DNA of 62,014 bases, filler included. It is 12 parts of 12 records of this genome, joined end to end, with 100 filler letters (N's around TTAATTAATTAA, not from the genome) between each part and the next. Parts side by side here need not be neighbours in the genome. Positions count along the whole stretch, not along the records: positions 7,614 to 12,519 come from SRR7504441_23542; positions 12,620 to 19,849 come from SRR7504441_23563; positions 19,950 to 24,028 come from SRR7504441_23570; 9 more parts are not named here. One strand, given 5' to 3'. Below the pieces are notes generated by a model, which did no database searches, was not told the DNA's origin, and worked only from the letters and a program-made list of their open reading frames with translations. Of the stretch, positions 227 through 43,881 are shown piece after piece. The stretch's first letter is position 1, and every line of letters starts with the position of its first letter. Made by a program: the position numbers and the translations under genes.

Positions 227-2229
227 ATGGCCGAGGGGGAAGGCGGGGCGCCGCACGACTGGACCTCGCTGCCGGAGGACGCGCTGATCGCGCTCCGTTC
301 GCACCTGGACCGGAACAGCGTGGCGGTGCTCGGATGTAAGTCCTGGCGCCGGGTCTCAGGCCCCCCGCTGTACGCGGAGGTCACCAAGCCGGCCTCCGGC
401 CCGCCAGTGGGCGACTGGAGTGCGCTGCCGCCGAGTGCACTGCAGCGGATCATCGCCAACCAGGAGACGGCCTGGGAACACGAGCCGGTCCGCAGCCTGC
501 TCAGGCCGGCCGCCACCTGCCGGAGCTGGGCGAGCGCCACCGCCAGCAGCGTGTCCAAGCTGCAGGACGTCGAGTTCAACGTGCTTGAGCCCCGGCTGTG
601 CGAGAGCTCGGACGAGTGGTTCGTGGGCTTTCTGGCCCGGTGCGGCAAGATGGACCGGCTGCACCTGGAGGCCTGTCCGCGAGTGCACCTCGGGGCGGCT
701 GAGAGCATCTTGCGGCTGCCCTCGATGCAGGCGGTCAGGTTCATAGAGCTGGTCGACCTGCCGCTCGAGGGCAAACTCGACTTCTCGAGCCTGCCCCAGC
801 TCATGTCACTCACAATCGCTAACTGCGGCCCGCCCGATCCGGAAGCGGCCGCTCTCTCGGTGGTGGCCCGTTGCAACCATCTGCGCTTCCTGCTCATAAG
901 AGGTGCCCGGCGCGAGGCCCCGCGCTCGATGGTCCGGCGAGCCACTTGGATCCGGGAGGCGCTGGCTAGTCCGGCCTTGTGCTTGAGTGCGGGCAGGTGT
1001 GCTTGATGTGCTGGGGGCTGGAGCAGCTATGCCTGGAGCGGCTGGCCCAGATCGACCGGCTCTGCGTCGAGGCCCCGAGCCCGTCGCTCACCGTGCTCAA
1101 GGTGGAGGAGCTCAAGCGGGTGGGTTACCCCGAGTTGCACCCGTGAGCGGTGCGCGAGGTGCCCCGGAGGGACTTCGATGCTGCGATGCTCAAGCTGAGC
1201 GCGGCCGGGCTGCACCAACTCACCCAGCTCAGCCTCAGCCGGTCCGCAGTGGCCAGCACCGAGCTCAGCCTCCAGCTGCTCCAGCGGTCCGCCCCCGCTG
1301 AGCCTTTGTCGATCAGCCCCGGCAGCACCGACCGGCTCAAGCTCCGGACGGCGAGGTTTGACGGATGCCCACACGTGTCGCTCGACCAGCTCAACCGATG
1401 CTTGCCCCAGGCATGCCGGCCCGCGCTGGGCTCAGCCTGTCGGCCAGACCTTCTTTGAGCGCTGGCGTGGGCTCGGTGACAGGCTCACTGCTCTGGTCAG
1501 CCCGCCCGCTAGCCCAGCCGCCCCACGCAAGCCTCCGACCAGCCCACCCGCAAAACCCAGTTTGGAGGCCAGGCTGGAGGCTCTCGGCCGGGCGTCCGGG
1601 CGGCGGGCGGGTGGGTCGGCCCCGGCGCTAGAGTGGCTGCGGCAGCGGCTGGGCGGCACCAAACCGAGCAGGAGCCGGCTCTGCCCGATCTGGCTCCGGT
1701 GAGCGCCTGGCCGAATCCGGGCCGAGCGATCGGGCCAGCAAAGGCCGCTGCAGCATGGCGGCCCAGTGCCGATTCGCACACGGAACCGAGCAGCTGATGC
1801 GGCCGAGCAGCGCAGTGCGGCGCGAGCGGAGCTTCAAGACCCAGCTGTGCCACACGTTCATCAGGCTGGGCTCATGCGCGCGCAAAAAGTGCAAGGTGGC
1901 AGCTCGAGGTGCATGATGATATTAACTTAATCTTGCAGTTTGCGCATGGCTTGGGAGAACTTCGAACGCCGCACGGAATACCGGGACAGCTTGCCAACGC
2001 CCAGCACAGACTATTCGGTCAGCGCAATACCAAACCTAGAAGAACGAAACAAGACCCCATGCAAGAGCCGGGCACTAGCAATCGAGGCTATTGTAGGCGG
2101 TGTGGCCAGTACTATGGCGCTCACCCGCATGCGCATATTTGCAATGTCAAAACCAAGGTTAGCAGAACATCGAGAGGAAAAGTTAGTAACACAACGTTGA
2201 CAGTCCCCAACACTAGTCACAATCAATGA
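227..2229 (+). CDS. Multi-exon F-box-like / LRR protein with C-terminal tandem CCCH zinc fingers
   Basis: F-box-like starts HDWTSLPEDALIAL and GDWSALPPSALQRII are followed by LxxLxL repeats. Removing small introns (e.g. 959-996 GC-AG, 1120-1158, 1699-1738, 1896-1938) restores CPIWLRKGRCSMAAQCRFAH (C-x8-C-x5-C-x3-H) and FKTQLCHTFIRLGSCARKKCKFAHG. Stop at 2229. Confidence 0.7.
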
Positions 2230-7513: not shown

Positions 7514-7613
7514 NNNNNNNNNNNNNNNNNNNNNNNNNNNNNNNNNNNNNNNNNNNNTTAATTAATTAANNNNNNNNNNNNNNNNNNNNNNNNNNNNNNN
7601 NNNNNNNNNNNNN
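7514..7613. other. Artificial contig linker (N44-TTAATTAATTAA-N44)
   Basis: Six-frame stop 12-mer flanked by Ns. The same linker recurs 11 times. Confidence 0.98.
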
Positions 7614-7643
7614 AACCCGTCCGACCACGTATCGGTACCAGCT

Positions 7644-9880
7644 TTAGTATAAGCTGCGGTTGATCTCACCGAGCCCCCGGCTGTCCCGGCTGCGCCGCAC
7701 GAACCCAGCCCGTTCGGCCAGCTGTTTCCCCTCAACAGGGCCAGAGCTACCGTAGGTGTACTTGGGCGGAGGTGTTTTGCTCGCCTCGAGCTGATGCAAC
7801 AAGGGTGACCAGATCCGCCACGACTCAAGCAGCTCATCGCTCCGCACAAACGTGGCTTGCTTGCCCCTGACACTGTCCAGTATCAGCCGGGTGTACGCGT
7901 CTGGCGAGTAAGTATCTGAGAACCTGCACCAGAGGTGATCAAGCGCCTGCATGATAGCTGTGTGCAAGACGGGGCCTACCGTTGCTTGTACGTGAGGTCG
8001 AGCTCGCTCGTGGTGGCCTCGGTCCGCAGCCCGGGGGCCTTGGTGTTGCATTTGAGATATATCGCCTCGTTCGGTTGAATGCGCAGCACTAGTTCATTCC
8101 TAGAGAAACCCTCATTCCCTTGGAACAAAAAGTCCAGCGCCGGTGCCTCCTTGAACTGGATCCTAACCTCGGCCTGCCAGTGGTTAGCGGCAACCGCCCA
8201 GCTTTGCACCTTCCGCTCGTCCAGCGCTTTGCCCGCTGTCATGATGAAAGGCACGCCGTCCCACCTCCTGTTCTGCACATGCAGCACCGCCACAGCATAA
8301 GTTGGGCAGACAGAATCGTTCGGCACTGTCTCGTCGTCCAGATAACTGCCAAGCCTGATCAGCCCAGCGCTGTCTCGGCTGCTTGCCCTTCATTGCCTTT
8401 GTCATCCGCCACATATTGCCCGACTGCAACGTCCTCCAGCCTCACCTCTGGCATTGACTTGAGCAATTGCACCTGCAGATGAGCTCAACGGGGGAGCCGC
8501 AACCGAGCCCGACCTTGGCGTTGCGGATATGGTTGCCCGAGACGCCCGTTCCCGCCACCTGGGGGCACGATCAAGTGAGACAGCGCGATGGTCTGCTGTC
8601 TCACTGTGACTGGAGCCTCCATTGCAACTAGTGTGAGCACTTGCATCAAATGGTTCTGTGGCCCACTGGTGAACCAAATAGCCAGCGAGCAGCTAGCCTG
8701 CATGATGTCCCGGATGATCCCGTAATTGTCAAAGTATCCGCCCCTGCCCTGTGTCCCAAAATTCTCCTTGAACGTGATCGACACTGAGCTCACAAAATCT
8801 CTACACAGCAGTGGCTCCAGGAACGTGTTACCAAACCTGCCGACCTCTTATCTGAACCCAGGACAGGTCTGAAGGCACCGGAGCATGAGCATGCTCTGCA
8901 CAATCTCCTTGCCTAAATAATGATCAATGCGGTAAATTTGATCCTCCTGGAGACAAGAATTCATCTGACACCCGAGGCTCATCCCGATTCGGACCGGCGG
9001 CGGTGCCTCTTGAACCAGTTGGCTCGCTGAGGCCAAGTCGTGTCCAAAAGGTTTCTCGATGATCACTCTATTCCAGCCAGATCCGGAGAAAGCGACCGCC
9101 TACCGCGCCGCTCAGCACCAGAGGAGCGCCTGACCAGGCCAGGGGCATGCCTGTATCGCTTGCGCGTTCGGCAGGAAAACATTGGGCGGGATCGCAAAGT
9201 AGAACAGTCGGTTGGCCTCCGGTCCTGCCGGCTGCTGCTCCTCCCACTCGCTCAGCTCTCGCGCGAGCTTGCTGAACGACTCGTGGTCGCCGTACGGGCC
9301 TTGCCGGTAAAAGCAACGCCCGAGGAAGACGGCCTTGAGTGCCTCCTGCTCCGGCCCGGCCGCCTTCAGGTATCCAGACATCTGTTCCCTAAACTCATCA
9401 TCGGTCTTGGCCGAGCGCGCGTAGCCGCAAATGGTGAGGTGCGCCTGCACCAGCGAGGTGAATGTGGCAGCACTGGGGGGTACCGGCAGCAGCTTGTGCA
9501 GGTACAGGTCCCAGAGCGACGGGTACGTCTTCTTCTTGGCGAGGTCCCCCGAGGCGCCAAGCACCACGATCGATAGCTTCTGGCCCATGAACGGCTCCTC
9601 CGACGCGTGCGTCTGGGCCGAGCACGAGCGGCTAAGCTGCTCTGGCTGCACTTGTCCGTTGCTCTGCGGCCCTCCAGCTCGGGGTGCCGGCCGCAGTCGG
9701 GCAGTCACCTCGAAGAATGCTCGCACTTGTGCCGCCGTCCAACCCGCGGCCTCCGGCGGGGCCGAGAGCCCGGATAGGGTCTGAGCCTCAAGCTCTGCCG
9801 CCCCGCACGCTGGCCGCCAGCCCAACCAGCCAAATGTCACCGTCGATCAAGGCCTTAACCTCGGCGTCCGCATTCATCAT
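7644..9880 (-). CDS. G6PD: Glucose-6-phosphate 1-dehydrogenase (~12 small introns)
   Basis: Motifs [86 protein letters not shown] and DAYTRLILD. Confidence 0.97.
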
Positions 9881-9933
9881 GGTAACACTTCCCCGGGTGG
9901 GGCGTAAACCTACCGGTACTGTACCTATAGATC

Positions 9934-9952
9934 TACAGTAGAGTCTACTGTA
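9934..9952. promoter_or_regulatory. Perfect 9-bp inverted repeat in the divergent intergenic region upstream of G6PD
   Basis: TACAGTAGA-G-TCTACTGTA lies between the ATG at 9880 (-) and the ATG at 10058 (+). A regulatory function is inferred only. Confidence 0.35.
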
Positions 9953-10057
9953 CGTGTAGTTTATCGACGGGGATATAAAACTGGATAATAAAACTAGTGT
10001 ACAGTACAGTACCAGGTTACCAGTGCTGCGATGCGCTGGCCGATGCCTGCATTCTGA

Positions 10058-11440
10058 ATGCGACGGCTGCTGGTGCTGGCCACGCTTCTCGCCACCGGGG
10101 CACCGACCGACAGCCCGTCGGCTGCAGAGCTGCGCGCAAAGTTGGCGACCTCCCCCAACGATTTCGGGATCAACTGGCAGCTGGCTGGTGCGCCGTACCA
10201 GTGGGGCCGGCGAGACTCAGCCGGCAGGCGAGCTGGCGCGGGTGGGCGAGCACCGGCAGGCCGCCCGGCACGTTGCGGTATCAGACCGCCGGGGCTAGGG
10301 AGGGCGAGAAGGCTGACGTGGACGGGGGGGGCGCAGGCGTGTCTGCGGCAGCGGCCGGGGGACGATGCCGTGTGGGCCGAACACAGGTGCCATCCCAGGC
10401 ATCAGTAGCTCACCGGCGGGCGGTAGGCGACTGGAGGGGCTGATCGAGCATAAACTAACGGAACCCAATGGAACCGATCCGTGGGCGCCTCCGGATGCGA
10501 TGGCTGGGGCGGACTGGCTACCGGACGCGGCGGTCTGCCCAACGATAATAGTGCCCCAGCGGCGATACCCCGGGCTAACTGCTTATAGTGGCCCTGGTCC
10601 CTGCTCCACTGTGTAAGGGCTGTATCGGCAGGCGTTTGAGGCTTTGTATAGAGACAAGCGCTGCCGCTGTCACGAGTCTGCCAGGCCTGGATCGAACTTG
10701 CATCGAGCCTGAATCCGGGGTCAGGGCTGCGCTTCGGGGCTACCAGGGCTTCTTTGAGCACGTGCCGTTTGATGCTGAGCGTTGCGCCTGAGTTTGAATC
10801 TTGGCAGATCTCGCTTCGGCGGGGCTGGCGCTCTGTGCCGTACGGACTAGAAGACCTGAACCACATCTTCCAGGCATTTTTATTTGATTTTAACCACCCG
10901 GGGTGCGAGTGACCCAGCAGCGGGGGCTCAAACATGGATTGATCCACTCAGTTGCAGGTGGCAGCTGAGGTGGTCGGGCTAGTCCGGACCTGGCTAGATG
11001 CGTCAAGCCCAGGCTTAACCCTCCGCCAGGCGGGGAGCGGCCCGATCCGAATCGACGGATGTTGGCAGGTGGAGGGCAGTTCGCACGAGATGCTCTGGAA
11101 GCTCGACAGGAACCCTCGTGTGGACCTGCCAGGTGAGCTTGATCTGTTTGTTGTGAGCGGCTGAGGCGTAATAATCATAGAATGCTGTTTAGCTTGCTTA
11201 CTGCTCTGTGTGTGCAGGTCAGGATCCTCGGTACGCTGGCCCGGCCAGCATGTTGGATGTCTCTGATAAGTGTGGACAGATACGTTGTTGAGACGTTGGA
11301 GAGATTGGTGACGGCGACGCTCTCGGATGCACACGGACTTGTCGAGGGACTGGAAAGCAAGCGAGTATTGCAGTGAGATGCCAGGCCTAATCAATCTTTT
11401 CTTTGGTAGAAGATCTAGCCAATACTCGGTGGCGCCTATC
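10058..11440 (+). CDS. Hypothetical secreted protein with N-terminal TPR-like motif, multi-exon
   Basis: Signal-like MRRLLVLATLLATGA. The spliced product NDFGINWQLAGELARVGEHRQAARHVAACLRQRPGDDAVW looks TPR-like. The 3' exon structure is uncertain. Confidence 0.45.
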
Positions 11441-11726
11441 TGAGGTGTCGACAGGTGTGTCCACGCCCATCCGTTCATCCAAAAGCTCGACCAACTGAGT
11501 GCCCGAAAGGACAAGGCTGATGACAGTGCGGCGAGCTTGTTTTGAAGCCCCTCGCAATAGTTTTCGAATAATGCGCAATAAGGATATGCTCAAGACAAAT
11601 TGTACGATTCAAGGTAGCTTAGCGCGGAATAGCGTCGGTAGCAGCGCCGTATCAGCACCGGTACAGTACATGTATGCGCGTAGCTCCTTTCTTTTTTCTT
11701 TGCGGGACGACGGTCGTGCAACAGGC

Positions 11727-12212
11727 ATGGCCTGGCTGGGGCGGGTGGCTGCGGGCTGGCTGGGTGGGGCCGGGCGGCGTGGTTGCATCACCGCAGCCAC
11801 GTCCAACCCGGCACCGACTCCAGTCGGCGAGGTTGTCTATCGGTACGGTCTGCAGCCGCAGGAGCCCGAGCAGCTGAGACTCGGGCCGGCCGCACTCAAA
11901 GTGATCGACTTGCGCAACGCCTCCCGGGCCGAACTGAGCAAGATGGAGCGGCAGCGAATCCGGGCCCATTTCCAGCGGCGCAGGGGCGACACTGGCTCCC
12001 CGGAGGTGCAGGTGGCTCTGCTCAGCGCGCGGATCCAGGCGCTGGCCGGGCACATCAGGGCGCACCACAAGGACAAAGCGTCCAAGCGGGGCCTGATGGC
12101 GCTGGTGCAGCAGCGCAAGAAGATGATGGCGTACATGCGCCGGAGCGGGGCCGAGGAAAGATACCTTGAACTCAACAAGTCGCTGCCAAGCTCAGGGCTG
12201 TTCCGACCTTAG
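11727..12212 (+). CDS. MRPS15: Organellar (probably mitochondrial) ribosomal protein uS15
   Basis: [51 protein letters not shown], preceded by an Arg/Ala-rich transit-like N-terminus. Confidence 0.9.
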
Positions 12213-12395
12213 CCAACCTGACTTGTATTCGGTGTACGAGTATCATCTCGATAGATCTTTGAGCAATAAAGCATCCACGGGCTAAATACATTCACCTACG
12301 ATTTCTATGCACATGCATTGCCCAACTAAAAATGTATTGTTAGTGCGAGTGCGTAGCAACAACTAAGCAACTTCGATATGTTTCGTATTTGGTGA

Positions 12396-12519
12396 CTAAA
12401 CTCGGACAACTTTGTCGAGCAGCTCCTTCTTCACCTCACCATATGGGTAGGACGAGGGCGCCTTCGCCGTAGGTTTGAGCGAGACGTTTCCAGCCTTGAT
12501 CTCTGACTTCACATCGCCA
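12396..12519 (-). CDS. 3' fragment of a gene with a WH2/actin-binding-like motif
   Basis: Reads GDVKSEIKAGNVSLKPTAKAPSSYPYGEVKKELLDKVVRV* up to the contig edge. Confidence 0.35.
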
Positions 12520-12619
12520 NNNNNNNNNNNNNNNNNNNNNNNNNNNNNNNNNNNNNNNNNNNNTTAATTAATTAANNNNNNNNNNNNNNNNNNNNNNNNN
12601 NNNNNNNNNNNNNNNNNNN
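12520..12619. other. Artificial contig linker
   Basis: N44-TTAATTAATTAA-N44. Confidence 0.98.
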
Positions 12620-13390
12620 CCACAGTCGGATTTACATCGGCTACGTAGGTGGGTGGCCCGTCTGGGTGCATTGGCCCATGACAACAGTTGACGCGGCTGG
12701 CGGCGTTCTGGACCAGCCCTGCTCGAGTCTGACAAGAGTGCCAACAGGGGTGTCGAATTGGCATTTTGCTCTCACTTGCCAACCACTGGCCGTGCCTTAT
12801 TATGCAGTCAAAATATGCTCATCAGTGATATTGAGTACACTTGAGGGCCCTTAGCTCCAGTGCACAAATTGTCGTACGGCTTCATACTGGCGTGACTCGT
12901 TACTTCAGGTGGTAACTCAATACAATCGTAACTGTAGTGTCTGTCGTCTTCGTTACCACATTCGGCACTGACCTCGAAAGCCTGAAGGCCAGTGTTACAA
13001 CGTTGTCCCACAAAGTGATCTTTCAAAAGGTCGATCCCACTTTTGAGCGGTTTGCGCCACACCAGCAGTCTTTCAGTCGCTCGTAGCCTAAGCTGTCAGC
13101 GCATTTCCCACCCGTGGCTGCAAATCAAGGTTAAGGATCAGTCCGGCCGAGAATGGCTTGTCTACCTTTGCATTGCTCATTATTACATCATCTTCAGCTC
13201 CTCCACCAGCCCAGGCTCCTCCTCAGAGCTGTCTGACCCACTGTCCTGCAGCCCATCCTCTGGGTACAGGTCACTGACTGCATCCAACACAGCCCTGGCC
13301 AGCGGGCCTCCCGGCTGCCGACTATGCAGTCTAACTGCAGTCCGAGCAAAGCAACGAGGCTACTGTAGGCGCATCGCGTGCGCATGCGCA
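12620..13390 (-). CDS. Possible hypothetical gene, 3'-truncated
   Basis: Coding-like acidic segment (LYPEDGLQDSGSDSSEEEPG) plus ORF 12808-13062, divergent from cyclophilin. No family recognised. Confidence 0.25.
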
Positions 13391-13439
13391 TGCCGTTGTC
13401 CGCCAATAACGTCAAATCGGCCAAGCCCGCGCCGCCGCT

Positions 13440-14228
13440 ATGGGTTTTCTCAGCTCTGTGCTCGGGGCCGGCGGCGAGGCCGGCCCTGCACCCAAGCCGG
13501 ACCCGGCACAGGACGAGCGCTACAACCCGCCGCTCGGGGCCCTCGGCCCAGCCAACACCAAGGCACCTTGCGGGGCCGGCGGCGGTTTGAGTGGCGCCCC
13601 AGGTGTTCTTCGACATGACGGTGGGCGGGGCCCCGTGCGGCCGGATCACGATCGAGCTGCGGGAGGACGTGGCGCCCAAGACCTGCGAGAACTTCAAGGC
13701 GCTCTGGTGCCCGCCGGCCGGCCCGTCCTGGGCTTAGCTCTCCGGCAGCACCGGAGAGAAAGGCTTTGGGTACAAGGGGTCGCCGTTCCATAGAGTGATC
13801 CCGCAGTTCATGTGCCAGGGCGGCGACTTCACCGCCCAGAACGGGACCGGTGGCTGGGCTGGCTGGCTCGGCTGACGGGCCGCAGGCGGCAAGTCAATTT
13901 TCGGGGAGAAGTTTGAAGATGAGAATTTCCACCTGCAGCATCTGGGGCCCGGGGTGCTGTCGATGGCCAACGCGGGGCCCAACACCAACGGATCCCAGTT
14001 CTTCATCTGCACTGTGCGCACCTCGCACCTTGACGGCAAGCACGTGGTTTTTGGACAGGCGCGGCGCGAGTGCGGCTTTGGGTGAAGGGATGCTGGCAGG
14101 TAGTGGACGGCTTCTCTGTGGTCAAGGCGATCGAGAGCGTTGGTAGCTCCGGAGGGAAGACGAGCATGCCGGTGGTGGTCGCCGACTGCGGTGTGGTGAC
14201 AAAGGACTCAAACGACGATGAAGTTTAG
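13440..14228 (+). CDS. Cyclophilin-type peptidyl-prolyl cis-trans isomerase (4 introns)
   Basis: Introns 13563-13602 (GC-AG), 13707-13748, 13850-13885 and 14059-14099 (GC-AG) restore [45 protein letters not shown] and [18 protein letters not shown]...[11 protein letters not shown]. Confidence 0.97.
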
Positions 14229-14382
14229 GCCATCGATCGATAGCTCGCCAATTGGACTAATGTTACTCCGTCCATGCGAATAAGTGTACGTAGACATAAA
14301 CCTAATATGTTGCCGGAGCCGCACTCAATTTTTTTTTTATTGATGCATCATTGTACGTGGTTGTTGTCGTAAGCGCTTCGAG

Positions 14383-15628
14383 TTATGAACTATTCGTGCA
14401 TGCACCCTCTCGGATTGCAGGCTCGAGCACCACCTCACCTGGCCCTAGCTCAGCCCCACTTCCTCGGATGCGCACCGATATGCATCGCGAGTTGATCCTC
14501 CGCGCTGTAAAACCCCGTGTCATACTGCCTCCCGTCCCAAAACAGCTGATCCAGCACCTCGACAGTCATCCCAGCCTCCTCATACACGGGGTTCTGGTAG
14601 ATCTCCTGCACCCGGTTGATCGCCACCGCCGAGGCTGAAGCCCTAGAGGGACATGCCCCCAGCGCGCTCTGTGCAAGCGGTCAGCTGCTGGCCCACTGCC
14701 GGTAGAGGACCTTAAAGCTCTCGGGGCATTTTCCGTTGATGATCATCTGCATCCCAGATGCCTCGAGCGTGTTGGGATGAGCGATCCCCTGCAGCCGGCT
14801 CAGCGTGCACACTGGCTGCTGGTACCTTTTCGCCGCATTCTCGGCATATTACTTCTACCATGTCCTTCACGTCCTCCCTGTCCGCACTCCAACCCGGTGC
14901 CTGCGCCCGGGTACCGGCGGTAGACAGTGGAGGATAGGTCCCACGGATAGTTCCACTCTAGCGCCGCCTGCCCCACCGACTAGCACACCATGGGCGGCGC
15001 CCGGCGGACCATCAGCCTGATCCAGGTCACACTGTGGTCGGCTACCGGCATCAGCGCGGCCGGCGGGGTGGATGGCTTGCCCTGGCCTCGGGTGAGCCAG
15101 CCCCGGGCAGCGTGCCGGCCTGCGGGTGGCAGAACTGTAGGCGCGGGTGCAGCATCAGATGGTACGACACCACCTGCTCGTTCGCGAGCACCGCGGACAC
15201 ATCGCTGCCCGCCCATCATGCCCAGCTTCGTGCGGCAGGTCGCCTCAGCTGGACGTGGCGGTAGTACAGGCTGTCGTCGCAGCAGAGCATCACCATCTCG
15301 TCGGCCCGCTCGAGCAGCCCCCGCAGCTGGTCCCCAAAGCTCTGCTCCCGGTGGAAGCTCACCCCTGGGAACTGCGCCTGCCGCCTAGACTCGGCCCGCC
15401 GACCCCTCTCGGCCCGCCTGTATCTGAGCGTACGACCGCTCGAACTCGGGCCGGACCGTGTAGAGGACGTGTACCGACAGCCGGCCGAGCACGAACCTGT
15501 GGAGCGTGCGGAGGCATTCCCGGAGCTGCGACCGGGTGGGCGGTGCCCGTGGTGCCCGGCCGCACCTGGAACGACCGGTCCTTGGAGAAGCAGATCACCG
15601 TCAGCTGCACCTCAGCTGCGGCGGCCAT
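14383..15628 (-). CDS. Putative GT-A fold glycosyltransferase (FSKDR...DD type), multi-exon
   Basis: Spliced product VICFSKDRSFQLRECLRTL...VHVLY...VMLCCDDSLYY...PNTLE...MHIGEVVL resembles GT2-like proteins. Confidence 0.55.
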
Positions 15629-15700
15629 AACCTCCCACCCCCGCGCAAGGGCCAGGTAACTCCGGAGTAACGGAATTTGTGAGGCCCCCGGACGACAGGC

Positions 15701-17460
15701 ATGTCGGTGGCACCGCTTGAGCTCAACAGGATGCTGGTCCGGTACCTGGACGAGGGGCAGTTCGAGCGGGCGGCCGCGCTGTGCGACGAGCCGGAGGCTG
15801 AGGTGCTGGCCGGGGCGGACCAGTGGCAGATGACCGGCAGCCAGCCCGCAGCCGCCCGACCGTGAGCCGGTGGGCAGCGCTGCACCACGCCTGCGAAACG
15901 AGCGAGCGGGTGGCGCTCAAGCTGCTCGGTATGGACGGGGTCGAGCAGCTGGTCAATCGGTGCGATCTGGACGGCCGCACCCCCCTCCACTGCGCGTGCG
16001 ATGCCGGCTTCCAGGATGCGGCGGCAGCGTTGCTGGCCGGTGGGGCTCGGCCTGATGTGAGGAACGGACTGGGGTGCGCTGATGGGCTGGTCAGGCGGTG
16101 GACGACCAGGAGGGCCAGACGCCGCTCCACTGCGCGGTGCTCGGGCGATATCCTGAGCTGGTGGTGGAGCTGTGCCACTGGTCGGCGCCACTTTTGCTTA
16201 GGGTGCTGATGGATCTGGTCGCAGGAAAGTGCCTGTTGCAATTTGTGACAACATGGGGCGATCCGCAGCGCACTGGTGCGAGTTGTTTTCTAGGCCGCAC
16301 GGCTGAGACACTTTGGGTGTGTGCAGGGCCGTTGCGCAGGGAGATGAGCAGACCGCAGACAGGCTCCTGGATCTGATGGACCAGCACGATGTGCACTCTC
16401 CAGACCAGCAGGGTTACACGCTGGTCATGCTTGCGGTTGAGCAGGGACTAGAGGGACTGGCCTGCCGGTGAGCAAGAGGGTCACGGGCAGGGGCTGGCTC
16501 ATTGGCGGAGCAGGCTACTGGAACTGGGAGCAATACCTACTCAAAGCCTTCCGTCTGGGGACACTCTTTTAGCATTTGCGTGCCGTTCTGCGCACTATGG
16601 CCTCGTTAGTAAGGTGTGTGGCTCACAGCTGCTAATGACCGCGCCCGTTAGCTGCTCCCCCATTATGCCCTGGATATCCTGGAGCAAACGCGAACAAGAG
16701 ATGGCCGCACTGTAGCGCATGACACAGCATCTGGGGGATCGGTTGCCCTTATGGTATTTTGCTATGGTTGATTCACTGTGGCAGTTTGAGATTTCTCAAT
16801 TGCTCATGGATGTGGGCGTGGATTTTAATCGAAAGGATGACAGGGGAATGACACCATTGCACTTGGCAGCTATAGGCGGTCATGGCCAGCTGGCCAGCGG
16901 AATCATTGCACATGGTGTTGAGCTCGAGGCAACTAGCACCGATCAGAAACGACAAAGGACAGCGTTGCATTATGCAGCCTGGTATGGGCGAGATAGATTG
17001 TGTTGCAGCCTGGTTGCGGCTAAGGCGGACCTTGCTAGATTCGACGGAGGAGGTGGCCAATTTACCCTCGTAGCCGCTTATCAGTGATGGTAGGTCTACC
17101 TGCACTGCATCTCGCAGCGCGAAATGGTCACCTGGCCGCCGTGGTTGCCATGCGGACCGCCTACTACGATTTGACCAGTTCTGAGGTGAACACATAAAAC
17201 TCCTGCCCATGAGCTAGTGACACCTCCTTCAGGCTTCCCTTGATCAGCAGGATGGTAGTGGTTCAACTATGCTTCATCACGCATGCAGTCACGGCCGAGA
17301 AAAAATGGCTGCTTGGCTGCTCACAAATGGTGCAAGTCCCCACATCAAGAGCTCCAATAATCAGACAGCGTCCCAGTTAGCACTCGAAACCGGTCACGGT
17401 GAATTGTGGCAAGGCTTGTCAAACATGGGGTTGACTCAAATGCACGTAAAAGGCCCTTGA
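15701..17460 (+). CDS. Ankyrin-repeat protein, multi-exon
   Basis: Repeats DLDGRTPLHCAC, DQEGQTPLHCAV, DDRGMTPLHLAA, RTALHYAA and STMLHHAC. Confidence 0.85.
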
Positions 17461-17614
17461 AACGCTGGTCGGTTGAGACTTCAGCTACACTTTGTAGTAC
17501 ACATTATATACATATAAGTAGTACTAGAACAGATAGAGACAATGTAGAGACAATACATCTGATGTATTAATTTTATTGATAGAATAATTAAGTCTGATGT
17601 TAGAGCTCTACACA

Positions 17615-19849
17615 TTACCACAACGGCGTCATCAAGTCGGTGACAATCGATTTTTCACTAGCTGCGCGCTTTAACGCTTTCTGCCTATCGGAGCTATGGT
17701 TTTGGCTTCGATCGCGCATCTCGCGCTCGTGTTGTGCCACTGTTTGCTCTATCAAGTCGCTCCCATCGTGGTCTGTGTCTGGTTCGGTGGGAGTTGCAGC
17801 CACATGCTCGTGTGCCTTGGAAGTACAGCTCACATATTTGAGAATGCACCAGACATCCGCCATGATACAGCTAATCATGTGCTTAGGCTTCGCGGCAAAC
17901 GGACATTGCTGTCCTCTAAATCTGCTCAAGGGGTGGTGTTCACTGAGCGGTACCTGCATACGATCATCATGAGAGGTGGCCGTCAAAGCTCAAACACACC
18001 TCAGGATCCAGGTCATCCACGCGAAGATACTTGGCCAAATTCGCCGAATCGCTCTCGAGCTTCCTCTGAGCTTCCAGCAACTGTTCTGAAGCCTTTGTAT
18101 ATCGCTTCAGCCCACCAGCCACCTGTTATGATCAGGTTACACCTGCGACACCCTGATGCTAGACAGACCGCCTGTGGAAACATGTCTTCAACGAGCGAAG
18201 CGGTTGCAAAGGGAACAACCTAACAAAATCAAAGCGTCAGTCACATGTCCAGACTGGGTTGTACATTGTCTGCGGCTGTGATCACGTGGTTCGCCTCATC
18301 GAGGATCGTGTCAATGCTTGACTGGACGCGCCACACCTACCAAACCCCAATACCATGGGCCGTATGGATGTCAGCACCTCGATATGGGAGACTGACTCAA
18401 TGTCTGTAATCAGCTGGTCAACTTTCTTGTCAAAATTGGGTTTGTCATCAGCCCAGCTTTTGCAGAGCCGTAAGATGATATGCACTGTCGCGCTGATGAA
18501 CTGTCGATGCTCCGTCTTGAAATTGTCGTCGGTGTAGTAGTCTACCATCGCTTTGAAGCCAGGGTATCCGCTTGTCATCAGCAAGCCGAAGGCTTCAATT
18601 GGTTGAGCTTGTCGAGACAGAATTGTAGATTTAAACATCTCAGCTGGGGTGCTCGATCTGGGCCAGTGGTTGACAAAGTTACCAAATGCGACCGTAGTGG
18701 TTAGAATCTCGGCAAGAATAGGACTTTTGATTATGCTGCAGCATGTTGTCCCAAGCTGCGATAGGAAGGTGAGCAACTTGGCCGCGTGCCCCTCATATCG
18801 TGGGAGCTGGTTGAGCGCCCGAAACGCCTTGATGCGTAGATCATAACTTGGGATCTCACGGAATACCAAAAGATACCGCTCAATCAAGGGAGGGTACGGT
18901 CGAAGCTTATCATAAGATTCAATCGAAAAATCGGATGGCCAGCGTTCCAAGGATTCAAAGTCGTCGTATTGAATCGTGCCCTTGTCAACCTTCATTGGAT
19001 GCAGGTTTTCTGCCCCGGCGGTCAGACCCGGCGGCGGCCGGTCGGTGTCGCACCGTACATGTCAATCAGACGCATCGATTGGATGATGTCTGCATCTGCC
19101 CTCGCCAGCTTATCTCTGAGATAAATGCAAAACGAATCCTCCGGACTCATCTGCGGGTTGGTTCTGAGGATCCAGCTCGAGACTTCATCCACGTCGGCAG
19201 TTCCACGGTGTTTCTGGTCGATAGCCTTGATCGTGGCCACGGCTTCCTTAATATCCATGCCACCTATTGCAATATCTGGATGCGCACACAACTTCACCAT
19301 GCCATCGGCCCCAAGCTCGCCATTCGAAGCACATGCGTTGAACACTGCCAGCACAGTTTCGCGGCGGGACTCAAAGCTGGGCATTTTGACAAGCCGATGG
19401 AATAGAGTGATGATCATTTCCAATGAATGCTGGCGGTGCGCGTTCAATACGGAGTCAAACTCCATCGAGGTAGGTGCCTGTGTTGTCGAGGAGGGCAACT
19501 TGTCGCCTGGCACTTGTTGTGCTTCTGTCCGCTGAGCGTCTAGTTCTAGAAGATCAAGGAGCTGTGTATCAGATGCCATTGCATCATACACATCCAGCGT
19601 GTATTGTTCACCGCACCTGTTCCACGCGTCCTGCTGGTCACTTGGTAGGTACGTCTGGAAGTCTTTCCCCCAGATTCCGACTGTCGTAATCTCCCCAGTC
19701 AGAGGCACCTGAGTTGTGAGCAGCTGAAACGGGTGCATCCTCCGTCCAGAAGGCCATCGTATTAGACTGCCTGCAGATCCCTTCCCCTTACCGCGGGCAG
19801 GCGGACCGGCTCCTCGGCATGGAGGCCCGCCTTTGCCTTTGCCTTTGCC
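17615..19849 (-). CDS. Divergent formin (FH1-like Gly/Lys/Pro stretch + FH2) with EF-hand-like insertion, 5'-truncated
   Basis: GKGKGKGGPP, lasso-like GIWG, VLNAHRQHSLEMII, ERYLLVFREIPSYDLRIKA and SIIKSPILAEILTTTVAFGNFVN (FH2 GNxMN-like motif). Confidence 0.65.
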
Positions 19850-19949
19850 NNNNNNNNNNNNNNNNNNNNNNNNNNNNNNNNNNNNNNNNNNNNTTAATTA
19901 ATTAANNNNNNNNNNNNNNNNNNNNNNNNNNNNNNNNNNNNNNNNNNNN
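19850..19949. other. Artificial contig linker
   Basis: N44-TTAATTAATTAA-N44. Confidence 0.98.
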
Positions 19950-20167
19950 CTGGAATGATCGACTGAATCATGCGCCTACTGCTTTCAACGGAGACGATTG
20001 GGCGCTCAAGTCGCAGAAGCATCGGTTTATCACGATTGATCTAAAGAGAGAGGAACTCAATAACCCGAACCATTTCACGATCAGCAAATCGACTTGACGT
20101 GAATAAAACGAATAAAATGGCTCGATCGTACGAGTACCCTACATGCATTTCATGTATTTGTATCGAT

Positions 20168-21039
20168 CTAAAGCGCCGAGTTCATGTGCGCGCCATCCAC
20201 GACTATGACAGTGCCCGACATATAGCTACTAGCATCCGAGCACAACAGTAGCAAGGCTCCGTCGAGCTCGTGCAGCTGTCCCAGCCGCCGGAACGGTATC
20301 CTCTTGAGCATCGCTTTACCCACAGGATTCTCCTTGCCGTCCACTCGATCAAACATAACTCGGTTGATGTCGGTGTGGAAGTAGCCCGGCGCGATCGCAT
20401 TGACGCGGATCCGTGACTTGGCCCACTCGAGAGAGAGTTGGCGGGTGAGGTGGTGGATGGCCGCCTTACTGCTCGTGTACTCTGGAGAAAAATGGTCCAC
20501 GCGGAGCCCCAGGATCGAGCCCACATTGATCTGACTCCCGCCAGGCGGGCTCTGGGCCATCATCACTTTGGCTACCGCCTGCGACAGCAGCCAGGGCCCC
20601 TTTAGGTTGACGGCGAGCACCGCGTCCCAGTCCTGCTCTGTGTGATCTAGAGCCGGAGACGGCGGGCCTGCCGCGCCCGCATTGTTCACTAGAACATCTA
20701 TCCGACCCCATTTAAGCACGGCAGCCTGTCCGGCACTCGGCTGAGCCGGTGGAGCTGGCACCTGCACGAAATGTTGGATCGAACTGAGCTGCGTCACGTC
20801 GAGCGGCACGGCCAGCAGCGCCAGTCCGCTGCCCTCGCCCTCCACCAGCGCCGCGAGCTGGGCCCGACGGGTCAGCGCGCCGAATCGGCGGGGGTCGCCT
20901 TATCGGCACGGCGGGCTCCGACCAGCACGCGGGCCCCGCGCCGGGCCAGAGTGAGCGCGAAGTGACGGCCGATTCCGGAGGAGGCGCCAGTCACCAGGAT
21001 TACCTTGCCTTCCACCGAGAATGGATCAGGCTGCGACAT
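20168..21039 (-). CDS. Classical short-chain dehydrogenase/reductase (2 introns)
   Basis: TGASSGIG, DVLVNNAG, YTSSK (YxxxK) and RVNAIAPG. One 41-nt GC-AG intron and one 36-nt GT-AG intron. Confidence 0.93.
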
Positions 21040-21462
21040 TGCAGAGCGAGTTGCCGGAGCCGGTGATCTCCGGTGTTTAACGGCATGCTCGGCAACGGTG
21101 CATAGGGCCATCGTTTCGCACACGCTGCACACAAGGTGCTTCGGCCTGCCTCTCATCCAGATCTTGTTCCCTGTCAATCTGTGCACCCTGTGCCCGCACC
21201 TGGTTGCCGCTTCCTGTGGCCTATGCTCACTGTTGGCGTTGATATCTATCTCCTCGATATCAGCCGCTCTGCATTCGCTGTGTTCGCTCTGTGCTGAGCT
21301 CGATCAGAGCATGCCCGTGGTCCCCATCTTGCGTCTCTTGATCACGGTGTTGCTGTCTTTAGGCTCGATACTGTACATCCTATGTCTTTTCTTGGAAACC
21401 GTGGCAGAGGCGTGCTCAAGCGCAGAAAGGAAGTAGCGGGAGTCGATAAGAATAGCTTCCCG

Positions 21463-22045
21463 ATGCGGCTATGTGGTGAGTGCATTCAATGGCTCACTCA
21501 AGCATGCACTTTGCTCATTGAATGTGCTGTGGACCAGGCCCGTCGACCGAGCAAGGGCTCATGAATGTGTACTTTGACTGGCATGAGTGGTCCTTTGAGG
21601 AGGATAACACTCTGGGCGATATGGTGGCTGCATTGATGCTCCAGCAGTCTGAGCTCAGTGGGATGACGGACGAGCAGCTCGAACAGTGGCTAGGCGAGAT
21701 CACGGGATACAGCATCCTTGACCCACGCGGGCCCCGGGCAGCTAGGGTGCGTCAGCTCTCACTATTCAGACTGGCCACTTGTGTCACTTGTTACACAACT
21801 TGTCCACTGAGTGTGTGTGTTTGTTCCAGACTGAAGGTCTCCAGGGTGCCCTGCACAAGACAGTGCAGCAGCTGCGGGAACCGGCTGTGGTGAAACGCAG
21901 CGAGTTTGGGCCTGGGGAAGACCCTGTGCTGCGTGTTGAGGTCCACACGGCCCAAGAGTTGGCCGGATGGACCACACCTTCTGCGGCTGACTATAACACC
22001 CAGCAGAATGAGGAAAAGGAAGCGTGCGGCTGTGCCATCTCGTAG
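21463..22045 (+). CDS. Small hypothetical protein ending in a CaaX motif (CGCAIS*)
   Basis: ORF pieces 21522-21893 and 21779-22045 can be joined by introns. The C-terminus is EEKEACGCAIS. Confidence 0.45.
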
Positions 22046-22347
22046 AACATAATGCGGAACTGGAACGGGAATTGTTCGGTCTGGAACTAGAACTGGGTCC
22101 AGGGTCATTGGTCGATTACGTTCGGTCGATCAATAACCGGTCGATCAACAAGTGCTACAATATATGGTACACATCATTTTAACGAGGAATGGGATTGAGC
22201 ATGCATGTTGAGCCGTAATAGAACTACATATCATGGTAAGGTACAATCAGAGCGTCTTAGCTTGGAACCGATTAATATTATGATGAGCCGGTTGAAGATA
22301 CGTACAGCCATGCACAACTCAAACCATCCATTCTTGTATCAATCAAC

Positions 22348-24028
22348 CTACTCGTCGTCGTCGTCGTCGTCCTTCTTCTTCTTCTTCTTCTTCTCGGATT
22401 TGTCCTTCTTCTCCTTCTTCTCAGACTTGTCCTTCTTCTTCTTTTTCTTCTCGCTAGCCTCCTCGGGCTCATCCTCGTCCTCAGCCTTGCGCTTCTTTGT
22501 CTTCTCCACCGGCGTGGCCACAGCAGCCTCGGCCACCGCGGTGTCGTCGACCTCCATCTCTGCCTTGCTTGGATCCTGGTCCGAATGCATCTTGGCGTAA
22601 TCAGCTGGGGTGCTCTCTGTCAGCTTTCCGTGCTTGGTCAGCTTGCCTTCTGCTATCAACTTCTTCTTCTGCTGCGCCATCGGCCCGAGCCCCCACTTCC
22701 GCGGGTAAGTATCCCTTTCCATGATACACCGCTTAATCTTTGCGACTACGCCGTGATCGACTGTGGCCATCACAGCGGTCGGCATTTCAGCAATGCCAAG
22801 CGCAATGGCCTCTCCCTTGGTGGTCATCAGCACCACCTCCTCATTCGCTTCGATATCTGAAGCGAAACGGAGCAGCCCGGGGATCATCAGTTTGGCGCCG
22901 TAGCAGATTGCGTTCACAGCACTGTCCTTGACTACGATTCGCTTATACGTGGTGAGCAGAGACTCGAGAGGTTTGATCACTCGCCGGAGGTAGCTCTCGT
23001 CCTTGTCGTTCTCGTACACGTACTGGGCGTCTAGAATGTCGTGCATGGTCACCATGTTGTCCTGCTCTCCATTGATTCCCGAGCGACACCGCCTGCCATG
23101 CACAGTTGGCCCGCCGCGACCCGTTGCGCGCACCGGAGCTCTTGCATGTGTCCGCCCACGCCGAGCAGCAGCCCGAGGTGAGTGCACAGGGTCCGGATGT
23201 AGGTGCCGGCCTCGCACTTGACGTGGAACACTGCGAGGTTGCGCTCCTTGTCGAACTCAAGAAGCTTCGAATCGTACACTGTCCGCACCTGCACTCGGGC
23301 TCAGCCGACACCGAGGCCCGCCGGACCCGCAGCTGGCGCTTGACTGCCGAGATGAGTGGCGGCCGCTGAAAGAGGGCTCCGGTGAGCTGTTCGATAGCTG
23401 ATTTGAGCTTCTGCGAACTGGACACGGTGTCGTGAAGCCGCAGCACTGAGATGTATTCCTTGCCTGCCCGACATTAGCGGCTGACCCCCCGCCGGACACA
23501 CCGGCGCCCTGCTGCGATTTGACCAGCCGAGTGGCCCGCTCGACGCAGACGATCAGACAACCGGTCACCTACTCCGCGAGTGAGCCGGCTGGGCCGGCGA
23601 GTCCCGGTGCCTTCGGGTCGAGCGTGCCGCTGTGGCCGGTCTTCTCGACCTTGAGGATCCGACGGATCCAAGCCACCACCTCGTGCGAGGACGGATTGGC
23701 CGGCTTGTCCAGGTTGATCACGCCCGACCTGCCGCCCGCTCTGGCCGGCCCCCTCGCCCGCCGGGCACCGGACGTAGTCGTACAGTGATCGCTTGAGCGG
23801 GGAGCAGCCCGCGTTAATCGGCGTGTAGTGCCCGGTCCGGACGTTGAGCTTGTCGTAGTTCTGTCCAGGCGGCTCGGCCGGGTGGCGGGAGCCGGGGCCC
23901 TGCCTTGAGCAAGAGCGGCCACTTGGAGGTATCCAGAGTTGGGGTGGTCTTCTCAGGTTCGATCTGGAAGTCCTCCGTGAGCTGGGCCTCCCCCACATCC
24001 TTCTTCTTCTCCTTCTTCTTCTTCTTCT
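22348..24028 (-). CDS. DKC1: H/ACA RNP pseudouridine synthase dyskerin/Cbf5, 5'-truncated, 6 introns
   Basis: [63 protein letters not shown], a PUA domain and a KKE/D-rich tail. Confidence 0.98.
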
Positions 24029-24128
24029 NNNNNNNNNNNNNNNNNNNNNNNNNNNNNNNNNNNNNNNNNNNNTTAATTAATTAANNNNNNNNNNNNNNNN
24101 NNNNNNNNNNNNNNNNNNNNNNNNNNNN
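24029..24128. other. Artificial contig linker
   Basis: N44-TTAATTAATTAA-N44. Confidence 0.98.
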
Positions 24129-26746: not shown

Positions 26747-27119
26747 TTGGCATTTCGCGTTATCGTGCGAATAATTCAAACAACACTCATGACAGCACTA
26801 CTGGTACAAATGTTGAATCTTTCTTATTCTTTATCAGTTCACATTCATCTTTGTGTCTTCATCGCGGAGCTGTGTTCTATAATCAGAAGGTAAGCACCTC
26901 TCAAAGTAACAAGGATTGAGTTTCTGTGAGCGGCCTTGGTTTCATTTCCCCGGCGAGGGTACTGGAGTCAACCATTCCCTTTCATCATTTGGAAGAACAC
27001 AGAAGAATATTATCGTGAAGAAGGCTATTCGTGGCCGAGCGGAGGTCTATCAACGTAGCAATCGCGCTGTTGTGGGAGCCACAACTATTAGGCGTTACCG
27101 GTATGAAGATGCCGGCCTG

Positions 27120-28680
27120 ATGAAGGTAGCTCTGGCGCAGCGGCTGCTGACCGAGTTCATCGGGACGGGGTTCCTTTGCCTGACCGTGACCCTCTCGGTC
27201 GGCCAGTCCATGCCGCTCAGGGCGGTCGGAATTGGTGCGGTTCTGACCAGCATGGTTTATATGGGCGGACCGCTGTCCGGGGCGCATTACAACCCTGCCG
27301 TGACGCTAGCCGTCTGGGTGCGGGCTGGCTTGCCGGGGATCGACGCACTGCTCTATGCCCTAACCCAGCTGGCGGCTGGCGCAGCATTCGGTGGACTGGC
27401 TTTTGTGTGGGAGCCGCAGATGCCGCATGCACTCGGCTACCCGGCTCGAGGCAGCGGGGTCTCATGGGGCGCGGCGCTGGCCTGCGAAATCGTCCTGACG
27501 CTGATGCTGGCGCACACGGTGCTGCATACAGCTACCGCTGAAGAGGCGGACGGCAAGCAGTATTTTGGGCTGGCGATCGGATTTGCAGTGCTCAGCGGCG
27601 CGATCAGCGTGGGAGGCATCAGCGGTGGGTGCTTCAACCCGGCGGTCTCGATGCTGTGCCTGGTAAACGGCCAGTACGACGATCTTTGGATCTATTGGCT
27701 GGGCCCTCTGGTGGGAGGTCTGCTCGCAGGCGGGGTGTTCAATGCGATTGTCCGGATGCGGGCCAAGAACGAGTGCATACTGCTCAGCAGCTGCGCTGTA
27801 GAGTTTGTGGGCACCTTCATGCTTTGTTTCACCGTCGCAACCGCAGCTGCGTCGAGCAACAGCCACGGCTACATCGGAGGCGGTCCGGTCGGTTCGGGCC
27901 ACGGCGGATCCGTCAGCGATCCGTTGGCTTCGCTTTCAATCGGAGCAGCGCTGGTGTCCATGGTTTACGCCGGAGGTTACGGCGCGAGCTTTAATCCTGC
28001 CGTTTCGATTGGGTGCTTTTTCCGGAGGTTGAGCTGCAGGGGATTCAAAGAGGAGCTAAGGCCGGAGTCACTGCTGCTGTGCAGCCATGTAGTCACGCAG
28101 GCGGTAGCGGTTTTCGGGGCGGGCTATGCGGCCCGGGCGAGCGTCCCTGGCACGATTGGTTACCCTTACCCGGAGCCCGGAGTGAGTGTGGCCGCTGCGT
28201 TCCTGGCTGAGCTGCTTGCCACGTTTGGTCTGGTGCTGACTGTATTAAATGTGGCGACTGCCAAGGCGACCTCTGAAAACAGCTACTTTGGCCTGGCAAT
28301 CGGCTTATTAGGTCCGGCCGCCCTATCTGCGAGCGTGCACTGATGGTTGGCATGCAGTGACTGCAATGTCGTTAGCGTTCGGGCTCATTTCAGGAGGTTG
28401 TTTCAATCCGGCTGTTGGGCTGCTTGCAATCACCTCGGGGACCAACGAGCTGGCACGCATCTGGATCTACTGGACGGCCTGCCCAGTTGGCGCAGTGCTG
28501 GCCGCCTTAGTGTTCCGGCTGTTGAATGGTGTCGAGTATGCCCCTGTGCAGACTGAAGAGGAGGAGGGTGAGATCAACAAGTTTAGGTCGCCGGCTGGAA
28601 TGTACGGGGATGTGCACGGCGCCGAGTTCGATTTCGACAAGTCAGACTACGGCGCCACTCCACGCTCGCCTATACTCTGA
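27120..28680 (+). CDS. Tandem (two-channel) aquaporin/MIP protein, one intron 28312-28357
   Basis: Four NPA boxes (HYNPAVT, CFNPAVS, SFNPAVS, CFNPAVG) and two EFxGTF-type first helices. Confidence 0.88.
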
Positions 28681-28712: not shown

Positions 28713-28812
28713 NNNNNNNNNNNNNNNNNNNNNNNNNNNNNNNNNNNNNNNNNNNNTTAATTAATTAANNNNNNNNNNNNNNNNNNNNNNNNNNNNNNNN
28801 NNNNNNNNNNNN
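28713..28812. other. Artificial contig linker
   Basis: N44-TTAATTAATTAA-N44. Confidence 0.98.
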
Positions 28813-33750: not shown

Positions 33751-33850
33751 NNNNNNNNNNNNNNNNNNNNNNNNNNNNNNNNNNNNNNNNNNNNTTAATT
33801 AATTAANNNNNNNNNNNNNNNNNNNNNNNNNNNNNNNNNNNNNNNNNNNN
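33751..33850. other. Artificial contig linker
   Basis: N44-TTAATTAATTAA-N44. Confidence 0.98.
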
Positions 33851-37712: not shown

Positions 37713-37812
37713 NNNNNNNNNNNNNNNNNNNNNNNNNNNNNNNNNNNNNNNNNNNNTTAATTAATTAANNNNNNNNNNNNNNNNNNNNNNNNNNNNNNNN
37801 NNNNNNNNNNNN
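37713..37812. other. Artificial contig linker
   Basis: N44-TTAATTAATTAA-N44. Confidence 0.98.
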
Positions 37813-41963: not shown

Positions 41964-41995
41964 TTGGCGTTCACTCGGCCCGCGATGAGGCCCCC

Positions 41996-43866: not shown

Positions 43867-43881
43867 AGGCCGCCATTCAAG

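Follow-up and report, generated by a model that had tools for sequence, protein, structure and literature searches.

GC-AG introns, which begin with GC instead of GT, are a small class: they made up 1.3% of about 2.46 million introns in one survey, the parts of which used here give shares of 39.6% for Aureococcus anophagefferens, 22.2% for Micromonas pusilla and 7.7% for a Chlorella, link a high GC-AG share to high G+C content, judge U1 RNA differences an unlikely cause and, in 2011, call the origin an "enigma" (PMC3033335). A later study puts the share at about 14-17% in Aureococcus and about 14% in Pelagomonas, ties it to genomic GC content and gives average lengths of 103-177 bp for pelagophyte introns (bioRxiv 10.1101/2024.10.30.620910). 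For Emiliania huxleyi, with a genome of 65% G+C, 241 curated junctions comprised 135 GC (56%), 95 GT and 11 GA donors, with AG as the acceptor (PMC4028052). These sources agree, in the portions of their text considered, with a preliminary description of the DNA studied here, made from the sequence alone, which had held GC-AG introns to be rare (around 1%) outside a few protist lineages. Here we analyse that DNA, a 62,014-base stretch referred to throughout as the window, in which three conserved genes, encoding G6PD, dyskerin (Cbf5) and a cyclophilin, are interrupted by 20 introns whose median length is 41 nucleotides (nt), eight of which have GC donors.

Introns of this length have been described in diplonemids, with medians of 41 and 42 nt in Diplonema japonicum and Sulcionema specki and 37 nt in A. 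motanka; of these, D. japonicum and S. specki are 98.3-98.4% GT-AG, and hemistasiid introns have no conserved ends (PMC12621601). In Amoebophrya, more than 60% of introns are non-canonical, with no signature at their ends (PMC7789003), and compensatory signals at human GC sites are the subject of a further study (PMC3167603). These three, too, are cited from parts of their text.

Set beside these systems, the window resembles E. huxleyi in being GC-rich, with abundant GC donors and an AG acceptor (PMC4028052, same excerpts). It differs in GA donors, which E. huxleyi has and which account for none of the 20 verified introns here and for one call in an ab initio run that allowed them. The introns of E. 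huxleyi are far longer than about 41 nt. A. anophagefferens, Pelagomonas calceolata and M. pusilla are likewise GC-rich marine picoplankton with exceptional GC-AG shares in the passages cited, although pelagophyte introns average 103-177 bp against the median of 41 nt here (bioRxiv 10.1101/2024.10.30.620910). D. japonicum and S. specki share the 41-42 nt median, a short 5' motif, a weak branch motif and a CAG 3' end, but are 98.3-98.4% GT-AG against 60% here (PMC12621601, as excerpted), and there is no sign that the window is euglenozoan. Abundant GC-AG introns in GC-rich marine protists are already known; what differs here is their combination with a size of about 41 nt. We found no report pairing introns of about 40 nt with at least 30% GC donors among sources judged mainly from their titles and the openings of their abstracts, a comparison that stops short of the per-species table of PMC3033335, which may list further GC-AG-rich species. 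We consider it very probable that the window's introns belong to the ordinary major type (U2-dependent) of spliceosomal intron and are close to the smallest workable size, in a GC-rich microbial eukaryote under GC pressure.

Spliced alignment places 20 short introns in three conserved genes

A tblastn search with G6PD homologs gave in-frame "insertions" of 12-17 residues and frame jumps at regular intervals. Using a custom protein-to-genome spliced aligner (BLOSUM62 scoring; introns of 20-150 nt in any of the three phases) and several homologs for each gene, we placed 10 introns in G6PD, six in dyskerin and four in cyclophilin. All 20 have the form G[T/C]...AG and are 36-56 nt long (median 41, mean 41.9). 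GC donors are found at eight of them (exact 95% interval 19-64%), or at 9 of 21 when an SDR intron described below is added (22-66%; binomial p=3e-13 against an expectation of 1%). The preliminary description had reported tiny, tightly sized introns in the same three genes; 20 of its 22 are confirmed, as is its count of eight GC donors.

Removing these segments restores the conserved frame: the spliced products are 72-92% identical to their best homologs over 198-510 aligned residues (G6PD 72-80%, dyskerin 87-92%, cyclophilin 77-80%), and every inserted segment is absent from these homologs. The homologs themselves are environmental proteins of the JGI and "merc" collections, found on 1-2 kb contigs or with none listed, and judging by their resemblance to assembled transcripts they are probably transcript-derived. 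All three genes lie in the range 7644-24028 of the window, which covers three contigs (7614-12519, 12620-19849 and 19950-24028).

The part of the G6PD gene covered by homologs runs from 9630 down to 7646 on the minus strand (Pfam G6PD_N and G6PD_C; 72-80% identity in spliced alignments with environmental proteins), ending in a TAA stop at 7646-7648, and its 10 introns were placed at identical positions with 3/3 homologs and again with a fourth, closer one, P0362. The six GT-AG introns are intron 1 (9445-9483, 39 nt, phase 0), intron 4 (8837-8878, 42 nt, phase 2), intron 6 (8559-8604, 46 nt), intron 7 (8473-8513, 41 nt), intron 9 (8174-8209, 36 nt) and intron 10 (7924-7979, 56 nt). The four GC-AG introns are given here with the loss of alignment score when GC is disallowed: intron 2 (9100-9150, 51 nt, with in-frame stops inside; 42-46 units), intron 3 (8965-9006, 42 nt; 12-20 units, the weakest GC case), intron 5 (8656-8697, 42 nt, interrupting the conserved RDIMQ/NHLMQ stretch; 52 units) and intron 8 (8346-8386, 41 nt, agg/GCAAGC, with a frame shift on retention; 33-96 units). 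Twelve introns had been claimed for this gene, and two of them do not appear within the homolog-covered part. Coding sequence continues upstream of the Met at 9588, where a 12-residue stretch of the window aligns with TAATQASEEAFM of P0362 (76% identical). Beyond homolog coverage, the ab initio model described below calls two candidate introns on the same strand, a GT-AG intron at 9795-9840 (46 nt) and a GC-AG intron at 9646-9687 (42 nt, after CCG).

Dyskerin (22350-24028, minus strand; Pfam DKCLD, TruB_N, TruB_C_2 and PUA; 87-92% identical to P0121 and P0127) is cut at its 5' end by the end of the contig and stops with TAG at 22350-22352. Its six introns, at identical positions with 4/4 homologs, match exactly the number, the 38-43 nt range and the two GC donors given previously. 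Introns 1 (23861-23903, 43 nt) and 3 (23569-23610, 42 nt, with an in-frame TAG at its end) are GC-AG, with score losses of 97-141 and 92 units without GC; introns 2 (23729-23768, 40 nt), 4 (23464-23501, 38 nt), 5 (23289-23326, 38 nt) and 6 (23093-23133, 41 nt) are GT-AG. A seventh intron of 27 nt in the Lys-rich tail, called with homolog P0122 alone, is spurious. All six introns fall in the 5' half of the gene, and the last exon is 730 nt long.

The cyclophilin gene (13416-14228, plus strand; Pfam Pro_isomerase; 77-80% identical to P0296 and P0297) encodes an N-terminal extension and ends in TAG at 14226-14228. As described earlier, it has four introns of 36-42 nt, two of them with GC, although the N-terminal one can be placed in two ways. 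As placed here, intron 1 (13563-13602, GC..CAG, 40 nt, AAG/GC donor; score loss 77-86 units without GC) has the usual CAG acceptor and is apparently the version of the preliminary description. Introns 2 (13707-13748, GT-AG, 42 nt), 3 (13850-13885, GT-AG, 36 nt) and 4 (14059-14099, GC-AG, 41 nt) are firm. For intron 4, among the two weakest GC cases, disallowing GC costs 23 units, and the GT alternative turns the conserved HVVFGQ into HVGCWQ. A partial cyclophilin, P0300, from a metagenome-assembled genome labelled "Candidatus Hodarchaeales archaeon", is 85% identical to a cyclophilin exon of the window and may represent either a eukaryote-like gene of an Asgard archaeon or eukaryotic sequence that ended up in the bin.

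GC donors hold up against alternative gene models

Restricting donors to GT lowered the alignment score from 1685 to 1476 for G6PD, from 1977 to 1732 for dyskerin and from 812 to 712 for cyclophilin (losses of 209, 245 and 100; 554 in total) and broke conserved stretches in all three genes. Leaving the intron ends unconstrained returned the same places and lengths, with scores of 1700, 1984 and 814 (gains of 15, 7 and 2). When GT was combined with one second donor dinucleotide, GC gave the best total of the 15 alternatives, 4474, compared with 4363 for GG, 4352 for CC and 3920 for GT alone; a second acceptor besides AG gained at most 7 units, whichever was added. Forbidding GC donors near each GC intron in turn cost 12-141 units.

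Reading through the segments is impossible for 16/20 introns, 11 of which shift the frame while 5 of the 9 in-frame introns hold an in-frame stop; counting the SDR intron, it is impossible for 7/9 GC-AG introns. Lengths divisible by three are not under-represented (9/20), and 4 of those 9 have no in-frame stop. Retention of these four (9445-9483, 8965-9006, 8656-8697 and 8174-8209, all on the minus strand in G6PD) would add 12-14 residues and would not end translation. Tiny ciliate introns have been reported to differ from the present set as to stop-free multiple-of-three lengths.

That the GC donors are misdrawn models, a nearby GT being the real donor, or that some segments are unspliced coding insertions, appears highly improbable in the light of these results. 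One GC intron does have a GT alternative that costs just 12-20 units, and the four stop-free introns of multiple-of-three length could be read through; set against this, GT-only models lose hundreds of units and break conserved motifs, GC outscores every decoy dinucleotide, 7/9 GC introns shift the frame or hold a stop, and the segments are absent from all homologs.

The introns are GC-rich, without a pyrimidine tract, and have invariant ends

Pooled, the introns are 70.5% G+C (A 13%, C 32%, G 38%, T 17%), with individual values of 57-88%, and coding sequence has a G+C of 59% as a whole and of 77.5% in third codon positions; the earlier characterisation of the introns as GC-rich is borne out. 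So is the lack of a polypyrimidine tract: the last 15 nt are 48% pyrimidine against 45% in coding sequence, and the longest pyrimidine runs are 2-7 nt. A branch-like YTNAB motif is present in 15/20 introns, compared with a background of 24% among 42-nt stretches that end in CAG (376/1589). The A of the motif is 7-17 nt away from the 3' end, 12 nt being the commonest distance, and for the most part 25-29 nt away from the 5' end, in keeping with the CTGA/CTAA/CTCA-type motif noted previously 10-15 nt before the AG. The acceptor reads (G)CAG/G: position -3 is C in 18/20 introns and T in 2/20, -4 is G in 15/20, and the first exon base is G in 15/20. These are the features of U2-type introns, with a GT or GC start and an AG end in 20/20, a restored frame and a branch-like motif in 15/20; a polypyrimidine tract, usual though not universal in that class, is the one they lack.

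U12-type introns are ruled out, with none of 78 verified and predicted introns carrying an [AG]TATCC 5' end and a CCTTRAY branch site. It is also barely credible that the introns are of a non-conventional kind, as in euglenozoans or Amoebophrya, or are mobile introner copies, removed via pairing between their ends. Some diplonemids do match them in size, their introns having medians of 37-42 nt (PMC12621601), and the nearest relatives of the window's genes are environmental sequences, so that no name speaks against such a lineage. The ends are, however, invariant (G[T/C]...AG in 20/20), whereas, according to the parts of the same study used here, diplonemids with canonical introns are more than 97% GT-AG and the non-canonical ones have no conserved ends. 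The folding energy of the introns is like that of shuffled sequence (mean z -0.5), and no 11-mer is shared among the 78 verified and predicted introns, apart from one prediction overlapping at the same locus.

GC donors have a better context than GT donors

The two donor types differ in their surroundings: GT donors are mostly CCG/GTGC, and GC donors are (A/C)AG/GCA. The preliminary description had stated that every GC donor follows exonic AG or GG, and this is the case (AG in 8/9, GG in 1/9). A stands at -2 in 8/9 GC donors against 2/12 GT donors (Fisher p=0.002) and at +3 in 6/9 against 2/12 (Fisher p=0.03); outside +1/+2, GC donors match CAG/GTAAGT at 3.9 positions on average and GT donors at 2.75 (Mann-Whitney p=0.004). 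Within introns, 66% of C+T is C, but only 40% at +2, so T still appears to be preferred at that position.

GC-AG introns of other eukaryotes show a stronger donor consensus. The GC donors of the window resemble the GC 5' sites of animals and plants in this compensation by neighbouring positions, matching the consensus better at -2, -1 and +3 than GT donors do. Where they differ is in frequency, about 40% here against about 1% of introns there (1.3% overall in the survey text cited, PMC3033335). The better context at -2 and +3 fits ordinary compensation through pairing with small nuclear RNAs (snRNAs) and is no evidence for a spliceosome blind to +2.

These figures bear on a different explanation, in which the spliceosome itself is altered (in the U1 5' end, the U6 ACAGAGA box or Prp8), reads C and T at +2 nearly equally and measures introns by their length. 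It would account for GC donors at 8/20 or 9/21 sites, far above the usual 1% or so, for a donor consensus that is weak beyond GY, for the missing pyrimidine tract and for the very narrow size range. T, however, stands at +2 in 60% of donors against 34% of C+T within introns, GC donors need a better context, as unchanged machinery predicts, and the putative U1 RNAs of Aureococcus and M. pusilla were judged an unlikely cause of their GC donors in the passages of PMC3033335 cited; we regard this explanation as distinctly unlikely. The preliminary description had similarly proposed that introns are defined by length and by exon-side pairing with U1 and U5, with relaxed recognition of +2, a proposal that finds partial support. 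Its exon-side part agrees with the strong exon-side consensus of GC donors and fails for GT donors, which lack that consensus; a relaxed +2 sits poorly with the apparent favouring of T there, and for definition by length it is the narrow size range that suggests it.

Further introns in the window and an ab initio estimate

Genes were named from Pfam scans of reading frames. In the SDR gene (20171-21303, minus strand), Pfam and PDB coverage puts the Rossmann-fold exon and the catalytic exon in different frames, so an intron between them is obligate. Among the enumerated candidates, only 20898-20858 (GC-AG, 41 nt, minus strand; aag/GCGACC...GCTGAC...CCCAG) preserves the conserved second beta strand.

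A probable TOR intron at 58640-58676 (plus strand, GC-AG, 37 nt, aag/GCAACT), with stops inside and a change of frame, was chosen with 4/8 TOR homologs and also by the ab initio model. Models of the TOR N-terminus were discordant across the eight homologs because identity is only about 38%, and this intron alone recurred. In the F-box/LRR gene, an LRR-like reading frame is broken in two by a TGA in frame at about 1143-1145, and frame and codon-score analysis points to a probable intron at 1120-1158 (plus strand, GT..GAG, 39 nt) that removes it and has a GTGAG motif 12 nt before its end. All AGs within about 55 nt downstream of the TGA are preceded by G or A, and removing the stop needs a GAG or AAG end; the GAG acceptor previously proposed at 1158 is thus plausible, though homologs lend it no backing.

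For the window as a whole, we used an ab initio model combining codon log-odds with splice-site matrices that have no preference between T and C at +2. At the chosen penalty it recovers 15/20 verified introns exactly, with 1 extra call, leaving out one gene at a time for the splice-site matrices; its codon table was trained with the test genes included. Its predictions amount to 75 introns, distributed over 25 gene chains: 47 have GT and 28 GC donors, and 58 of the 75 are new (36 GT, 22 GC). With all 16 donors allowed, the new calls were GT 23, GC 17, CC 9, CA 7, CT 7, TG 7, CG 6, AG 5, TT 4, GG 4, AA 3, AC 3, AT 2 and TA 1, and the GC share is near one third after subtraction of a decoy level of roughly 4-9 calls. 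Given the weakness of the codon signal, this window-wide figure is a rough one. The branch motif does not discriminate the predicted introns (23/58 decoy-donor calls carry it), since decoy calls have their 3' ends in common with real introns. The densest ab initio region, 14483-15658 on the minus strand, has eight predicted introns of 33-54 nt, five of them GC, in a gene without a Pfam match.

The source is probably a GC-rich marine microbial eukaryote

With high G+C and GC-AG introns amounting to at least 10% (8/20 or 9/21), the window is like GC-rich marine protists, and its source is probably a GC-rich microbial eukaryote from the sea. The best named match of its G6PD is Telonema subtile, at 63%, with Tribonema, Paraphysomonas, Sphaeroforma and Aphanomyces at 58-60%; named relatives in protein clusters (Telonema, Tribonema, Paraphysomonas, Cladocopium, Polykrikos and Pelagodinium) are all distant. 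Among the best 120 hits for G6PD, dyskerin and cyclophilin, none bears the name of a haptophyte, a pelagophyte or Micromonas, in a database of which about a quarter is named. A dyskerin tree puts the window in a nine-member clade made up entirely of environmental sequences (Shimodaira-Hasegawa-like approximate likelihood-ratio test, SH-aLRT, 99), beside a second environmental clade of eight and apart from the diatoms, oomycetes, greens and fungi in the tree. A search of public genome contigs for the locus with a dyskerin exon gave a single, irrelevant bacterial TruB locus.

Other genes and the layout of the window

The window consists of 12 separate contigs of 3.8-7.5 kb, and its G+C per 2 kb is 0.50-0.675. 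The contigs are joined by 11 identical linkers, N44-TTAATTAATTAA-N44, in which TTAATTAATTAA puts stops in all frames, at 7514-7613, 12520-12619, 19850-19949, 24029-24128, 28713-28812, 33751-33850, 37713-37812, 41996-42095, 46302-46401, 51588-51687 and 58104-58203; features are not to be read across these joins. An Rfam scan of the window matched no family, with no snRNA gene among its results, and no tRNA gene was found in the window.

Within 7644-24028, Pfam also identified a ribosomal S15 protein (11499-12209, plus strand), ankyrin-repeat genes and an FH2-like frame. Genes outside that range include F-box/LRR, beta-helix proteins, SURNod19, aquaporins, an EF-hand PIP5K, a sulfatase, SET, CAP-Gly and TOR. 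A Pfam scan of 107 short reading frames for extra small conserved exons gave almost nothing more.

Intron density is very uneven across these genes: in G6PD, 10 introns interrupt 1.46 kb of coding sequence (7646-9630, minus strand), and the frames of TOR (3.2 kb; 58839-62012, plus strand), PIP5K (2.7 kb; 39333-41993, minus strand) and the sulfatase (1.6 kb; 42256-43893, minus strand) are uninterrupted or nearly so. The PIP5K frame runs for 887 residues without interruption, with an EF-hand ahead of the kinase domain; its nearest Atlas clusters share this architecture and come mostly from ciliates (Ciliophora being commonest), at scores of only 0.76-0.77, a weak taxonomic lead. Two aquaporin (MIP) frames stand in tandem on the plus strand (26910-28340 and 28312-28677), the second running toward the contig end. 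Because the first spans the entire Pfam profile, the pair looks like a tandem duplicate and not like two exons of one gene. A CAP-Gly frame (49369-49743, minus strand) overlaps plus-strand frames at 49578-50335 that match the Pfam "Decapeptide repeat region".

Discussion

If the introns of the window are, as we think very probable, ordinary U2-dependent introns shaped by GC pressure, a standard spliceosome would remove them, recognising each across the intron, and GC pressure together with compensation would be the cause of the GC share. Their layout suggests a weak, short 5' site (G-Y-R-C), about 25-29 nt to a putative YTNAB branch site, about 12 nt without a pyrimidine tract and a (G)CAG/G acceptor. 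With so little information at either site, the spliceosome probably recognises both ends together, across the intron (intron definition), and the narrow range of 36-56 nt would reflect this. GC-biased mutation or conversion pressure would keep turning the donor's +2 T into C, and C at +2 would survive at donors whose other positions (A at -2, G at -1, A at +3) pair better with the snRNAs.

Several points weigh against this account. Splicing is deduced from sequence, with indirect support from related proteins that are probably transcript-derived, and the sample is small, at 21 introns from four genes. A weak codon model underlies the window-wide estimate, in which decoy donors collect 4-9 calls apiece. 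Individual placements leave some room: G6PD intron 3 (9006-8965) has a GT alternative at 8994-8965, 30 nt long, that adds four residues and costs only 12-20 units, and cyclophilin intron 1 could instead be placed at 13546-13591 (GC..GAG, 46 nt), the donor being GC in both versions. The branch-like motif is absent from 5/20 introns. The evidence for compensation is correlative, and as neither an snRNA gene nor a splicing-factor gene lies in the window, U1, U6 or Prp8 may be changed. The 12 contigs might not share one organism, although the verified introns, on three of them, look alike.

A bolder reading would place the window in an uncultured, probably marine lineage without a named close relative, whose tract-less introns of about 41 nt would have about 40% GC donors genome-wide and whose spliceosome would have adapted, with U2AF-type 3' recognition lost or changed and the reading of +2 altered. 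We hold this to be rather unlikely; were it true, the lineage would offer a natural system for exploring the extent to which GC pressure can erode splice-site information.

Genomes of this kind will be mis-annotated by gene finders built around GT donors and introns longer than about 50 nt, which matters for environmental eukaryote genomes. A minimal intron length combined with a donor that may be eroding under GC pressure is useful for testing the amount of information that the spliceosome requires, and the window bears on whether an abundance of GC-AG introns follows from base composition and compensation or needs changed machinery.

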